A stretch of DNA of 64,000 nt, taken from sequence record OR844650; one strand, given 5' to 3'. Position 1 is the stretch's first letter. The number at the start of each line of letters is the position of its first letter. The notes below the pieces were generated by a model that ran no database searches, was not told the origin of the DNA, and saw only the letters and a list, made by a program, of their open reading frames with translations. Made by a program: the position numbers and the translations under genes. The stretch comes from Escherichia phage ECO103 4-12-1. Below, in pieces: positions 46,368-55,946 of the stretch.

Positions 46368-46449
46368 TAGATACACTCCTGCACCCAGTGGGCTAGTTTT
46401 TGTCTATGCGTATATAATAGCAAAGGGACTGACCGGAGTCAATCCCTTT
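46368..46449. repeat. repeat module R2 (conserved GCACCCnnnGGGCT segment + hairpin with A/T runs)
   Basis: agatacactcctgcacccagtgggct ... tatataatagcaaagggactgaccggagtcaatcccttttttt; near-identical to 49114, 52385, 55855 copies. Confidence 0.5.
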
Positions 46450-46464
46450 TTTTATTCTTTTTTG

Positions 46465-46665
46465 TTAGATGATTCTCCAATCTTCTACGATCATGGTAAG
46501 ATAACGGACCATCGATTCAAGTGATTCGAATTCCCGATAGTCTGCCGCTCCACCAGCGGTACAAGTACAGCCGATTAAACCATTTTGTAATTCCTTAATC
46601 TGTACATCGATAAGGTTGGCTTTAGCTTCTTTCAGTACTTCAACCAGGGCGATAGCGATAGACAT
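46465..46665 (-). CDS. hypothetical protein
   Basis: ORF 66 aa preceded by cassette. Confidence 0.5.
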   Translation of the reverse strand: MSIAIALVEVLKEAKANLIDVQIKELQNGLIGCTCTAGGAADYREFESLESMVRYLTMIVEDWRII

Positions 46666-46688
46666 AATGTTTTACTCCAAACTATTGA

Positions 46689-46749
46689 CGGGAGAACTAT
46701 TCCCCCGCTCTATGTAAAACATTATACATTACTTGTTAGTACTGTCAAA
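46689..46749 (-). promoter_or_regulatory. PeSL-like cassette
   Basis: TTGACA-N17-TATAAT then CGGGGGAA..TTCTCCCG hairpin. Confidence 0.55.
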
Positions 46750-46754
46750 TAGTT

Positions 46755-47012
46755 TTATGAAATATCTTCGATGTAGTCGGCCCATTTCATTTTTTCAGTA
46801 CTGTCAATGGCTACCGGATTATTTGGATCAAACCATTCACCATTACCGCAGTACATACCAACGGCTACGGTTTTATAGCCATCCTGGGCCGTACTCCACG
46901 ACATTGCACGATAGATATGGCCTTTAACTGGTTGCAGTACTGGTAACGTTTTATGGTCTTCTACGTAGGCCATAGCTTGAGGATTTACCCGATATTGTGT
47001 GAATTGTTCCAT
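46755..47012 (-). CDS. hypothetical protein
   Basis: ORF 85 aa. Confidence 0.5.
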   Translation of the reverse strand: MEQFTQYRVNPQAMAYVEDHKTLPVLQPVKGHIYRAMSWSTAQDGYKTVAVGMYCGNGEWFDPNNPVAIDSTEKMKWADYIEDIS

Positions 47013-47040
47013 GATGTTTCCCCTTGTAGTTAGTAAAGTT

Positions 47041-47069
47041 ATTACATCAGTACTATCAAGCTATGTCAA
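47041..47069 (-). promoter_or_regulatory. sigma70-like promoter (no stem-loop)
   Basis: TTGACA-N17-TGTAAT on minus strand; same element at 54474 and 57961. Confidence 0.45.
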
Positions 47070-47088
47070 TAGTACTGAAATAAAACTT

Positions 47089-47313
47089 TTAGATTAGATT
47101 ATTGATGCCGTTGATGGTAGACTCGCTTTCTTCTTTCTCCCATTGGCGGTAGTACTTCCATGCTTCATGATATGTGGCGATTAGTTCATCTTTTTGATCC
47201 TGAGTACATGCCAGTACTGAATCACGGTGAGCGGTGTTATAGATAGAATCGAATGATTTCTTCTCTTCTGCCAGGTTAGCTACTTCCCGCATCAGTTCAT
47301 CAAAGTTAGCCAT
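47089..47313 (-). CDS. hypothetical protein
   Basis: ORF 74 aa. Confidence 0.5.
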   Translation of the reverse strand: MANFDELMREVANLAEEKKSFDSIYNTAHRDSVLACTQDQKDELIATYHEAWKYYRQWEKEESESTINGINNLI

Positions 47314-47331
47314 TTTATTACTCCTTTTAGT

Positions 47332-47389
47332 GGGGGAGGATATCTCCCCCTATGCAAAACATTATACTTTGTTTTAGTTATTATGCAAG
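47332..47389 (-). promoter_or_regulatory. PeSL-like cassette
   Basis: TTGCAT-N17-TATAAT then GGGGGAG..CTCCCCC hairpin. Confidence 0.55.
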
Positions 47390-47644
47390 TACTTTTTTCA
47401 TATAAAGATTATATTCTACACCGCCGTAACCTTCTACGATGATATGTTTTGCGTTATCACGTTTGCACATAGTGAAACCGTTGTTGATGTGTTCTGCATT
47501 TTCCAGGGCGACATCACCGATAGCGGCACATACGGCACTAATAACAGTATTCCGCAAAGTACTGGTATCATTAGCGGTCATAGTAGTTTGCAGTACTACG
47601 TTGTCGTATACGTGTGCATTGATAGTGATTTCGATAGTGTTCAT
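47381..47644 (-). CDS. hypothetical protein
   Basis: ORF 87 aa. Confidence 0.5.
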   Translation of the reverse strand: MNTIEITINAHVYDNVVLQTTMTANDTSTLRNTVISAVCAAIGDVALENAEHINNGFTMCKRDNAKHIIVEGYGGVEYNLYMKKVLA

Positions 47645-47662
47645 GGTGTATCTCCTGGACTG

Positions 47663-47723
47663 GCGGGAGAACTATTCCCCCGCTCTATGTAAAACATTAT
47701 ACGTTAATCTAACTACAATGCAA
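47663..47723 (-). promoter_or_regulatory. PeSL-like cassette
   Basis: TTGCAT-N17-TATAAT then GCGGGGGAA..TTCTCCCGC hairpin. Confidence 0.55.
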
Positions 47724-47730
47724 GTACTTT

Positions 47731-47922
47731 TTAAATTTTATTTCCGATATAGTCCGGTCTATTCTTTTCGGTCATACGCTTTGCTAATGTTTGCATATGG
47801 CTTATTGCGTTTAATGTGTCTTCCTCCAGGGATGAATCAACATAATCAGGATCATTCTTCACCTTGCAATGATTATGATAGCGTAGTACTGCCAGTACTT
47901 TTTTAACTTCTTCTACTGTCAT
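47731..47922 (-). CDS. hypothetical protein
   Basis: ORF 63 aa. Confidence 0.45.
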   Translation of the reverse strand: MTVEEVKKVLAVLRYHNHCKVKNDPDYVDSSLEEDTLNAISHMQTLAKRMTEKNRPDYIGNKI

Positions 47923-54231: not shown

Positions 54232-54258
54232 TATCTTTAATAGTACTGGTAATATATT

Positions 54259-54438
54259 TTAGCGGTAATCGTCGTATGCTTTATTCACCTGGCGAATGTA
54301 ACTTTCAAAGGCTTCGTCTACCGTTTCATACTCCCGAACATAATCACCATAGGAAACTACATACATACCTTTTTGATCTTCAAACGTCATGATGATAGAA
54401 TCCAGACCAACGATTTCAGTTTTTGCGATGATAGCCAT
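54259..54438 (-). CDS. small hypothetical protein (59 aa)
   Basis: Hand-translated MAIIAKTEIVGLDSIIMTFEDQKGMYVVSYGDY...; just below ORF-track cutoff. Confidence 0.45.
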   Translation of the reverse strand: MAIIAKTEIVGLDSIIMTFEDQKGMYVVSYGDYVREYETVDEAFESYIRQVNKAYDDYR

Positions 54439-54473
54439 TTTTTAATTCCTTAGTAGTGTAGTTGATAAAAGTT

Positions 54474-54502
54474 ATTATGTCAGTACTATCAAACTATGTC
54501 AA
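54474..54502 (-). promoter_or_regulatory. sigma70-like promoter
   Basis: TTGACA-N17-CATAAT on minus strand. Confidence 0.45.
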
Positions 54503-54521
54503 TAGTACTGTGATAATATTT

Positions 54522-54734
54522 TTAGTTAATGATAGTCAGTGTAAAATTGTAATCACCGCAGCGATATAGCACGTTATTCCCAAATGTTCCAACTAATCGC
54601 ACATCACACAAAACGCCGGTTTTTTCTTTTACTTCCTTGATACTTGTAACTCCTGTAATATCTTTATTAAAGTATTCATGATCTGAAAATAAAACTTGTT
54701 TTGCATTTTTTAATTTCGACCGGATATTAGCCAT
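54522..54734 (-). CDS. hypothetical protein
   Basis: ORF 70 aa. Confidence 0.5.
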   Translation of the reverse strand: MANIRSKLKNAKQVLFSDHEYFNKDITGVTSIKEVKEKTGVLCDVRLVGTFGNNVLYRCGDYNFTLTIIN

Positions 54735-54746
54735 TTTGTTTTCTCT

Positions 54747-54805
54747 CTCTGTTAGTGGGGAGAACTATTCTCCCCTTGATGTAAACTATTATACAGTACT
54801 ATAAT
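54747..54805 (-). promoter_or_regulatory. PeSL-like cassette
   Basis: TTGACA-N16-TATAAT then GGGGAGAA..TTCTCCCC hairpin. Confidence 0.6.
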
Positions 54806-54830
54806 CTATTGTCAAACTATTTTTTTTATA

Positions 54831-55172
54831 TTATTCGAAATCTTCTGGACCGGACTGATAATCATCTTCACCGTATGCACTTTCTAACCGCTCGCCAGTG
54901 TGATCATCAGTTAGTGAGTCATCCTCATAGTTCACGTTCACGCCCGTGATGTAAAACTGGCTATCGTCTGGATCATTGAAATTAATTTTTTGGATGTTTA
55001 CAATAACTGTATTGATACCCAGGACACCGCCATCAGCCGTTACAAAGTACTGATATTTTTCGCAACCGCCTGAATTGAAACCGTAATTAATTTCGGCCCG
55101 ACCATCATTTAAACGCAGTGCCTGGGCGATGATTTCATTTTCAAAGTTAGATTGAGCAATTGAGATAGTCAT
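54831..55172 (-). CDS. hypothetical protein
   Basis: ORF 113 aa. Confidence 0.55.
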   Translation of the reverse strand: MTISIAQSNFENEIIAQALRLNDGRAEINYGFNSGGCEKYQYFVTADGGVLGINTVIVNIQKINFNDPDDSQFYITGVNVNYEDDSLTDDHTGERLESAYGEDDYQSGPEDFE

Positions 55173-55192
55173 GATTTGTTTCCTTATTATCA

Positions 55193-55251
55193 GGGGAAAC
55201 CGTTTCCCCTTTCGATGTAAAACATTATACGCTTATCAGGAAGTAATGCAA
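55193..55251 (-). promoter_or_regulatory. PeSL-like cassette
   Basis: TTGCAT-N16-TATAAT then GGGGAAAC..GTTTCCCC hairpin. Confidence 0.55.
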
Positions 55252-55254
55252 GTA

Positions 55255-55722
55255 CTATTTCACGTTAATTTCAAAGTACTGCTCTTTGATGTTTTCCTGT
55301 TGGTAAATCTCGTTTAATGCTTTAAGATCTAAAACCTGTTTACCTGCTGCCTGAATATACTTTTTAAGAGTCGCTAACAGCTTCTCAGGCGTGTTTGTAG
55401 TCTTACGTGTTGGGATCTTATCGTGCCCCATAGCGTAGTACTGCTTACGTGCTATAGTACTGATAACACTGCGGTACGGTTCCATGATCAGCTTGTCTGT
55501 GTATTCGTCGCTATCCCCAAACTTCATACCGTGGATCGCAAAGGTCATCATCATGCGGTCGTTATCGCGGATATTGTGGGGGCAGTCGGCAAGCTCGCGA
55601 GTCAGTGACATAGTGATCCCCACGTCGCCACCCAGCGGTAAAGGTCGGGCGATAAAGAAACCGTTAGGGAATACTTTCAGGAAGTTTTCTTGAACTGCTG
55701 CGACGAATTCGATGCTATTCAT
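55255..55722 (-). CDS. hypothetical protein
   Basis: ORF 155 aa. Confidence 0.55.
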   Translation of the reverse strand: MNSIEFVAAVQENFLKVFPNGFFIARPLPLGGDVGITMSLTRELADCPHNIRDNDRMMMTFAIHGMKFGDSDEYTDKLIMEPYRSVISTIARKQYYAMGHDKIPTRKTTNTPEKLLATLKKYIQAAGKQVLDLKALNEIYQQENIKEQYFEINVK

Positions 55723-55742
55723 AATTCATTTCCTTAATTAGT

Positions 55743-55801
55743 GGGGGAAGTTGTTTCCCCTCTCGATGTAAAACATTATACGCCAATTGAGATAGTTTGC
55801 A
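55743..55801 (-). promoter_or_regulatory. PeSL-like cassette
   Basis: TTGCAA-N15/16-TATAAT then GGGGGAA..TTTCCCC hairpin. Confidence 0.55.
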
Positions 55802-55854
55802 AGTACTTTCTACAAATACTATTAAAATAGTTTTCAGTACTCAATACTCATATA

Positions 55855-55946
55855 ATAGATACACTTATGCACCCTGTGGGCTAGTGAGCTATCTCTCAAT
55901 GAATATATAATAGCAAAATGGCTGACCGGAGTCAACCACTTTTTTC
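55855..55946. repeat. repeat module R2
   Basis: atagatacacttatgcaccctgtgggct ... gaatatataatagcaaaatggctgaccggagtcaaccactttttt. Confidence 0.5.

Follow-up and report, generated by a model that had tools for sequence, protein, structure and literature searches.

The window analysed here, a 64,000-nucleotide stretch of DNA from Escherichia phage ECO103 4-12-1 (sequence record OR844650), contains a repeated element, termed R2, whose copies are intergenic and lie among minus-strand open reading frames (ORFs) of 50–200 amino acids (aa) at 46–63 kb. On the basis of its computed anatomy, strand, promoter linkage, covariation and distribution, we propose, with a probability of roughly 0.65, that R2 is a minus-strand stop-and-restart transcription cassette of the early region of the terminal repeat, carrying an extra conserved RNA element.

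The R2 copies and their genomic setting

Megablast of window positions 45800–56100 matched 110 phage records, the best of them being the Asteriusvirus Escherichia jumbo phages vB_Ec-M-J, fEgEco12, G17, 121Q and PBECO4 (93–97% identity), and sequence similarity thus marks the window as that of an Asteriusvirus-like (Rak2-like) jumbo phage. The ORFs between 45 and 64 kb are all small and all on the minus strand. The stretch homologous to 45–64 kb lies inside an annotated 21.5-kb direct terminal repeat in vB_Ec-M-J and within a 22.5-kb redundant repeat in CBB; each R2 copy is therefore expected twice in the DNA of a virion. The gene content of the R2 region varies between relatives. Early genes of Rak2-like jumbo phages have been reported to use host RpoD-type promoters with UP elements, and these phages possess T4-like core genes (PMC5259590).

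The degenerate 25-nt core pattern TAGATACAYTYNNGCACCCNNTGGG occurs on the plus strand at 46368, 49115, 52387, 55856 and 62716 with 0 mismatches (0.00 expected in shuffled sequences), and the hairpin-bearing half ATAATAGCAAANNNNCTGACYGGAGTCAA matches the first four of these copies only. The five align over about 105 bp with a mean column identity of 75%, so that, as the sequence-only reading of this DNA had held, the similarity extends beyond the hairpin. That reading had counted four full copies and one partial copy; all five are real, but the count was incomplete, since two inverted cores were found at 60505–60517 and 62671–62683, behind plus-strand promoters at 60449 and 62622. From promoter through motif, these inverted copies span 60449–60533 and 62622–62699. 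A covariance model run over the whole window with filters off returned 7 matches, all between 46 and 63 kb. Nor is the copy at 62715 partial: it appears functionally complete, with its own −35/−10 pair (TTGACT-17-CATAAT, from 62794 to 62766) and its own hairpin. The features of the seven copies, with the scan or model behind each, are as follows.

46422..46449, minus strand: copy 1, predicted terminator hairpin AAAGGGAUUGAC-UCCG-GUCAGUCCCUUU, 16 nt past the stop of ORF 46465..46665 (terminator scan; −19.9 kcal/mol, z −5.1; homologous position annotated as a terminator in G17)
46414..46442, minus strand: copy 1, predicted sigma-70 promoter with −35 TTGACT inside the hairpin, 17-nt spacer, TGn and TATTAT (promoter scan 10/12, TG)
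46365..46403, minus strand: copy 1, leader motif, short form, GCCCACUGGGUGC with tail GUAUCUA (covariance model 34.4 bits, E 1.6e-6; pattern match)
49174..49201, minus strand: copy 2, predicted terminator hairpin, 12 nt past the stop of the kinase-like ORF 49213..49854 (scan; −19.5 kcal/mol, z −5.3)
49166..49194, minus strand: copy 2, predicted promoter TTGACT-17-TGn-TATTAT (promoter scan)
49112..49161, minus strand: copy 2, leader motif, long form, UGAG-AGAUAA-CUCA, ACCC-AUA-GGGU and tail GUAUCUAU (covariance model 68.8 bits)
52441..52468, minus strand: copy 3, predicted terminator hairpin, 12 nt past the stop of ORF 52480..52629 (scan; −17.7 kcal/mol)
52433..52461, minus strand: copy 3, predicted promoter TTGACT-17-TGn-TATTAT (promoter scan)
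52384..52428, minus strand: copy 3, leader motif, short form (covariance model 33.4 bits)
55915..55942, minus strand: copy 4, predicted terminator hairpin with compensated outer stem UGG/CCA replacing GGGA/UCCC, 3 nt past the stop of ORF 55945..56088 (scan; −16.9 kcal/mol)
55907..55935, minus strand: copy 4, predicted promoter TTGACT-17-TGn-TATTAT (promoter scan)
55853..55902, minus strand: copy 4, leader motif, long form (covariance model 59.9 bits)
62770..62802, minus strand: copy 5 (the supposedly partial one), own hairpin GCCGGUAUUGAC...GUCAGUACUGGC around the −35, about 28 nt past the stop of ORF 62825..63055 (−22.8 kcal/mol, z −7.8)
62766..62794, minus strand: copy 5, predicted promoter TTGACT-17-TGn-CATAAT (promoter scan)
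62713..62761, minus strand: copy 5, leader motif, long form, hairpin 1 GGC-AGAUAA-GCC (covariance model 43.1 bits)
62622..62650, plus strand: copy 6 (inverted), predicted promoter TTGACA-17-TGn-CATAAT, convergent with copy 5 (promoter scan 11/12)
62661..62699, plus strand: copy 6, leader motif, short diverged form, ACCCACCGGGUGC with tail GUAACUGU (pattern; covariance model 21.6 bits, E 0.0045); the reverse complement of the copy 5 motif begins 31 nt further on
60449..60477, plus strand: copy 7 (inverted, stand-alone), predicted promoter TTGACA-17-TGn-CATAAT (promoter scan)
60485..60533, plus strand: copy 7, leader motif, hairpin 1 GAC-GAAACA-GUC, ACCCACCGGGUGC and tail CCGUCUAU (covariance model 33.3 bits)
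60558..60578, plus strand: two-way hairpin CGGGGAG-UUAUUAU-CUCCCCG, 24 nt past the end of the copy 7 model match and also past the stop of the minus-strand ORF 60584..60835 (terminator scan, both strands)

R2 occurs in two forms, set apart by a 5-nt indel that reflects whether a small hairpin, hairpin 1, is present in the leader motif (long form: 49114, 55855, 62715) or missing from it (short form: 46368, 52385); the short form accounts for about a fifth of copies, including those at 46368 and 52385. Positions 60449–60590 make up a stand-alone unit of promoter, motif and two-way hairpin with a predicted plus-strand RNA of about 105 nt, and 62622–62802 hold a face-to-face pair of motif copies.

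The minus-strand hairpin and its predicted embedded promoter

A consensus terminator scan of the minus strand matched all four full R2 copies, and the R2 hairpin is annotated as an ARNold terminator in the G17 record and as an ARNold stem-loop in that of GAP32. Folded as RNA of the minus strand, the five hairpins of the window reach −16.9 to −22.8 kcal/mol (z −4.8 to −7.8); they lie 3–28 nt beyond the stops at 46465, 49213 (the kinase-like gene), 52480, 55945 and 62825, in agreement with the earlier description of a hairpin that follows minus-strand gene stops. The same description had made the hairpin a bidirectional terminator. Its terminator part accords with the scan and with the ARNold annotations in relatives, but the plus-strand folds are weaker by 5–10 kcal/mol: the three copies tested gave −14.1, −13.4 and −6.4 kcal/mol (z −3.1, −2.9 and −0.6), the last of these, copy 4, being no better than shuffled sequences. 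This weakness arises because G.U wobbles between the fixed TTGAC and the 3′ arm turn into C.A mismatches on the other strand. No plus-strand gene or promoter leads into copies 1–4 in the window ORF list and promoter scan.

Among oriented loci across genomes, 38/43 gene-sense copies carry the hairpin (dG <= −8), against 0/21 antisense ones; its mean energy is −14.2 on the gene strand vs −8.9 on the opposite one. An ungapped alignment of 22 distinct hairpins has 88.6% of cells paired, compared with 77.8% in shuffles (0/500 as high); three G-C pairs of the outer stem covary (GC, UA, AU, CG), and the inner stem opposite the −35 has U.G or G.U pairs in 7–16 sequences each. Behind the hairpin on the minus strand comes UUUGCUAUUAU, a moderately U-rich tract. 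Given its minus-strand folds and its presence in gene-sense copies only, the hairpin therefore counts as an RNA feature of the gene strand, linked to the upstream gene, and the bidirectional terminator reading is not supported. From its sequence and placement, we take it for a putative intrinsic terminator or 3′-end hairpin.

Read on the minus strand, what had been described as a hairpin with flanking A and T runs is AAAAAA-GGGA-TTGACT-CCGGTCAGTCCCTTTGC-TATTAT: TTGACT, the −35 hexamer, lies in the 5′ arm and loop, and the 3′ arm forms the spacer. A consensus promoter scan placed minus-strand sites at 46442, 49194, 52461, 55935 and 62794 (−35 TTGACT, 17-nt spacer, TG) and plus-strand TTGACA-17-CATAAT sites at 60449 and 62622, just upstream of the two inverted cores. 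All 7 window copies match the extended −10 sigma-70 consensus at 10–11 of 12 hexamer positions, with TG. Such a promoter stands at a fixed distance in 85/85 distinct instances from 20 loci of Rak2-like jumbo phages, with 19–21 nt (short form) or 24–28 nt (long form) between the −10 and the second leader hairpin, hairpin 2 (RCCC...GGGU). Copy 5 keeps the hexamers and their spacing around a different intervening sequence, as a promoter, and not a terminator, predicts. The A-run is better explained as a stem extension (AAAGGG/CCCUUU) and as a UP-element-like tract of the promoter. The plus-strand promoter at 62622, previously supposed to feed the copy at 62715, drives its own inverted motif and faces the promoter of copy 5, and so gives no sense transcription of that copy. 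In terms of sequence organisation, R2 very probably consists of a minus-strand terminator hairpin, an embedded promoter and a transcribed leader.

The R2 hairpins at about 46440, 49200, 52460 and 55940 are spaced 2.7–3.5 kb apart and split the minus-strand early genes into blocks of 3–6 small genes, each with its own promoter. A further strong minus-strand terminator was detected at 50677–50695.

The conserved, putative leader RNA

The conserved part of R2 begins about 7 nt past the −10, and its start is therefore predicted to be the 5′ end of the minus-strand transcript. It had earlier been suggested to be a protein-binding site or part of a plus-strand transcript; its fixed distance downstream of a minus-strand sigma-70 promoter and the compensatory changes in its RNA hairpin speak for neither. 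The leader is laid out as hairpin 1, YUA, hairpin 2 (RCCC-AYA-GGGU), GC, RRARNU and GUAUCUAU; conservation ends about 16 nt past GGGUGC, and six variable purine-rich bases ending in U precede GUAUCUAU. Hairpin 1, of 3–5 bp, begins some 2 nt into the predicted transcript and closes on a purine-rich loop (AGAUAA, GCGAAA or AGAACAA), with stems such as UGAG/CUCA, GGC/GCC, AGCA/UGCU, ACCAC/GUGGU, UCCA/UGGA, GGAG/CUCC and GACG/CGUC among 29 distinct stem sequences.

The covariance model was built on 10 equal-length seeds (alignment A3), a MAFFT alignment of all long-form copies (A2) being structure-inconsistent. It found 104 matches in 330 kb of phage loci, and in their alignment 97.1% of cells were paired vs 75.3% in shuffles, with 131 double-change cells vs 44 (0/500). 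All 4/4 pairs of hairpin 1 covary, with three to five pair types each, and sliding the partner by one to three columns lowered pairing to 15–62%. In a second, independent set, 55 matches that a pattern not touching hairpin 1 had drawn from metagenome contigs, 96.5% of cells were paired vs 76.8% in shuffles, again with covariation at 4/4 hairpin-1 pairs, and RNAalifold predicted the same two helices. These results argue strongly that the leader has been selected as RNA.

Several other identities considered for the leader were rejected or appear unlikely. One was an additional helix or pseudoknot that would pair the loop AGAUA with the tail UAUCU, or 5′ CAUAG with CUAUG; a single-sequence fold of copy 2 had chosen it, yet loops such as GCGAAA cannot form it, and mutual information over 83 instances showed no tail pairing. 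Coding for protein is countered by the 5-nt indel between copies, and a mini-ORF NUG-UAU-CUA-stop in the tail has its start-codon G in only 53/82 instances. A CsrA site would have GGA in the loop, and the leader Gs lie in the stem, as GGG. The RfaH ops element (GGCGGTAGCGTG) is approached by GCGGAGGUG variants that are not general, and the T4 RegB GGAG site occurs in only about half of tails. The leader is not known to resemble the I-E or I-F CRISPR repeats, and a repeat mimic seems unlikely.

Downstream of the motif, 34 of 41 gene-sense copies continue either to the next promoter cassette or straight to a Shine-Dalgarno sequence with its ATG. In the window the order is R2 promoter, 50-nt leader, a second promoter cassette of what we call the R1 type, and gene; only some copies in other genera (7t3, at L008:15061, and locus L020) run directly into Shine-Dalgarno and ATG. 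The 22 antisense copies behave differently, 9 ending at a good hairpin with U-tract 22–26 nt past the motif, 12 facing a convergent copy and 1 doing neither; in 8/12 convergent pairs the reverse-complement motif starts exactly 31 nt past the tail. The stand-alone units encode nothing but the motif, and the motif RNA is therefore taken to be a product, beyond a cis-acting leader. A Fur-box-like sequence (GAGAATGATAATCATT, AATGATTATCATT) was observed in the loop between face-to-face copies in RaK2, K64-1, 7t3, Serratia BF and a metagenome phage (L004:~23770, L007:~29630, L008:~29330 and ~22990, L005:~19490, L020:~6090); it is absent from the window pair 62622/62794.

The 108-bp module was found in 66 phage records, all of Rak2-like jumbo phages infecting Escherichia, Klebsiella, Salmonella, Erwinia, Yersinia, Cronobacter, Pectobacterium and Serratia, at 2–10 places each, and in IMG/VR each genome has its matches in only one or two stretches, none longer than 15 kb. 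The exact pattern had 0 matches in 185,579 bacterial and archaeal genomes, and the leader had no blastn match in 5,426 E. coli genomes. Rfam yielded no match at gathering scores over the whole window and none overlapping any R2 copy (45.5–64 kb) at E up to 5; a tRNA/tmRNA scan found none. Full-text literature searches on motif strings returned only unrelated matches, and a literature search for transcriptomics of the Rak2-like phage group found none. The leader motif appears to be undescribed, being without a match in Rfam, the searched literature or host genomes.

Two minus-strand terminators at 58709–58729 and 59445–59461 have related stems (AGCCCAC...GUGGGCU, then U6–7) that resemble leader hairpin 2 (GCCCAC). 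The first is overlapped by a sub-threshold Rfam match to Trp_leader at 58702–58766 on the minus strand (29.8 bits vs a gathering score of 41, E 0.015), which is probably a mere terminator-like structure.

Proposed mechanism, alternatives and meaning

We infer actual termination, actual initiation, protein binding and the role of the module from the computed features, and envisage the following sequence of events. At the end of the upstream small gene, the transcript would fold into a hairpin of 9–12 bp followed by UUUGCUAUUAU, acting as a terminator or 3′-end hairpin. Host sigma-70 RNA polymerase would re-initiate a few bases past the terminator, at the promoter embedded in the hairpin, and the new transcript would start about 7 nt past the −10, its first 50 nt or so forming a 5′-terminal RNA module. 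Gene-sense copies would read on into the next cassette and gene, making the module an mRNA leader; inverted copies, which have no terminator hairpin, would stop 22–26 nt later or face another copy, giving a short RNA that carries the module. The module itself may be the functional product: made very early and in abundance, it would serve as an RNA tag for a protein of phage or host to bind, taking the form of a small RNA where it stands alone and of a leader where it is attached. Such a mode of action, as a protein-bound RNA product, small RNA or tag, is suggested tentatively.

Several points weigh against the proposal. The minus-strand U-tract UUUGCUAUUAU is weaker than the plus-strand T6–7 run. 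Hairpin 2 is nearly invariant apart from A-U or G-U at the closing pair, two changes from C-G to U-A and a few U.G pairs; its pairing is therefore weakly tested, and the hairpin could instead act as a DNA sequence. Within a genome the copies are partly homogenised, and Eneladusvirus copies share one hairpin-1 stem, so the counted cells are not independent events; covariance-model alignments, moreover, lean towards the structure of the model. Finally, the short form has no hairpin 1, and a purely 5′-protective role therefore cannot be general.

We considered that the leader could be a cis-acting processive antitermination RNA like HK022 put or lambda nut, whereby polymerase started at R2 would resist early-region terminators and polymerase started at R1-type promoters would stop at the next R2 hairpin. 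Put, with two long stem-loops, and nut, with boxA and boxB, act from nascent 5′ RNA, and R2 resembles them in its small hairpins and conserved single-stranded box just downstream of early promoters, in its strictly promoter-proximal position in all instances, and in terminators that punctuate the region about every 3 kb. However, R2 is not known to match either in sequence or structure; no boxA-like sequence was seen, hairpin 2 has only 4 bp, and Rfam gave no match at any threshold used. Almost every gene, besides, has its own promoter, and in 9/22 antisense copies a good terminator comes 22–26 nt further on, with nothing else behind the motif, an arrangement that would be senseless for an antiterminator. 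Antitermination is accordingly regarded as unlikely.

No better placed is the view that the leader is a mere mRNA stabiliser acting through its 5′-terminal hairpin, its conservation reflecting recent spread or gene conversion of a mobile cassette, a PeSL-type linker. Like ompA-type 5′ stem-loops, whose geometry protects against 5′-end-dependent decay, hairpin 1 lies some 2 nt inside the predicted 5′ end, with a stem free to vary provided that it pairs; within-genome copies are homogenised by lineage, and homology breakpoints between related genomes coincide with promoter cassettes. Yet RCCCAYAGGGUGC and GUAUCUAU are kept across phages of Escherichia, Klebsiella, Cronobacter, Pectobacterium, Serratia, Erwinia, Yersinia and Salmonella whereas the neighbouring hairpin-1 stem and the flanking sequence differ freely, which points to selection on sequence. 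Stabilisation also leaves the conserved hairpin 2 and tail unexplained and does not fit the short form; stand-alone antisense units have no mRNA to protect, and no breakpoint fell inside R2 in four comparisons.

The reading with which R2 was first described, a bidirectional terminator flanked by a protein-binding DNA operator or part of a plus-strand transcript, we consider highly improbable. On the plus strand a T6–7 run follows the hairpin and an A-run precedes it, two of the three copies tested still fold at about −13 to −14 kcal/mol, and hairpin 2 and the tail are conserved by sequence and not by covariation, as for a DNA operator. The hairpin is nevertheless strand-specific through its G.U wobbles, copy 4 equalling shuffles on the plus strand; it is missing from the antisense copies, copies 1–4 have no upstream plus-strand genes or promoters, and the flank holds a covarying RNA helix at a fixed distance behind a minus-strand promoter in every instance.

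A replication origin of the T4 oriF/oriG type, in which the transcript forms an R-loop that primes DNA synthesis, is scarcely credible: the order of promoter, conserved 50 nt and AT-rich DNA, the multiple copies in both orientations (face-to-face pairs included) and the T4-like core genes of these phages (PMC5259590) would suit it, but 7 copies in 17 kb of terminal repeat far exceed known origin numbers, the covarying hairpin 1 favours a folded RNA over a hybrid, and some copies directly precede Shine-Dalgarno and ATG (7t3, L008:15061).

The terminator/promoter half of the proposed stop-and-restart cassette comes closest to the PeSL type, and R2 may be classed as a variant of that type with an added conserved RNA motif. 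PeSL (promoter-early stem-loop) cassettes of T4-like phages combine a stem-loop, an AT-rich tract and a sigma-70 early promoter in hyperplastic regions, and are reported to recombine, serving as recombination linkers (PMC2839356, PMC4122927). R2 is likewise short, intergenic and repeated in a variable, ORFan-rich early region, with terminator, AT-rich tract and sigma-70 promoter. It differs in that its stem-loop contains the −35 and spacer, whereas that of PeSL lies upstream of the promoter; in that it continues into a conserved, structured leader of about 50 nt, whereas the 3′ end of PeSL is a Shine-Dalgarno sequence and start codon; and in that it belongs to Rak2-like jumbo phages and PeSL to Tevenvirinae. 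Local blastn against G17, SD-6_S16, 121Q and vB_Ec-M-J placed homology breakpoints on R1-type cassettes (48278, 48675, 53185, 55260, 55706, 56415, 58019 and 60892), as described for PeSL-mediated gene shuffling, and none inside R2 in the four genome comparisons; the lineage-specific homogenisation of R2 copies suggests exchange.

The R1-type cassettes themselves, about 30 copies in 45800–63830 (e.g. 49013–49085 and 55743–55816), are more numerous than R2 and read, on the minus strand, AAAAAGTACTTGCAA-N16-TATAAT-GUUUUACAU-, a hairpin GGGGAGAA...UUCUCCCC, Shine-Dalgarno and ATG.

The short transcripts predicted here for the terminal repeat have a parallel in PA5oct, a related but more distant jumbo phage using host RNA polymerase, where abundant non-coding RNAs of 236–451 nt arise in the long terminal repeat (PMC7318152); the R2 covariance model found nothing in the 39-kb PA5oct terminal repeat (best E 0.54).

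Two further sequence features of the window were recorded. The 8-bp palindrome CAGTACTG occurs at 56 sites (113–63832) against 0.75 expected, both in coding regions of 0–30 kb and in promoters, where AGTACT adjoins the −10 upstream (AGTACTGnTATAAT, supplying TG) and/or the −35 (AAAAAGTACTTGCA, AGTACTTGAC); it may serve as a site for a regulator or for modification. Positions 13000–44600 hold several families of diverged tandem paralogous genes (D8, D11–D13, D17, D19), among them D8 with 5 copies of 145 nt at a spacing of about 450 nt (25579–27562), and these families share conserved C-terminal-coding segments rich in GTACTG.

Rak2-like jumbo phages (121Q, PBECO4, RaK2, K64-1, GAP32 and CBB among them) are in use and under study as therapeutic phages, and the present analysis offers a concrete map of how their terminal-repeat early region is punctuated, in blocks of about 3 kb set by terminators around the −35 of the next promoter. 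It extends the PeSL idea of mobile terminator/promoter cassettes to a distant T4-like lineage, and describes, by a covariance model and about 150 instances, a 5′ RNA motif that is conserved and covaries. It is conceivable, although we would put the odds below even, that the module of about 50 nt (variable hairpin, RCCC-AYA-GGGU and GUAUCUAU tail) represents a new class of phage regulatory RNA that captures a specific host or phage protein, as a decoy, RNA polymerase modifier or protection tag. Its synthesis would fall within minutes of the start of infection and draw on at least 7 near-consensus promoters in each terminal repeat, a number doubled because the repeat is present twice; it would yield both free small RNAs of about 90–110 nt and mRNA leaders, and the 31-nt face-to-face pairs would form a sense/antisense control unit. 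Should the motif prove to bind a host factor, this would be a novel device for early host takeover; should it prove to modify RNA polymerase, the motif would count as a novel antitermination RNA.

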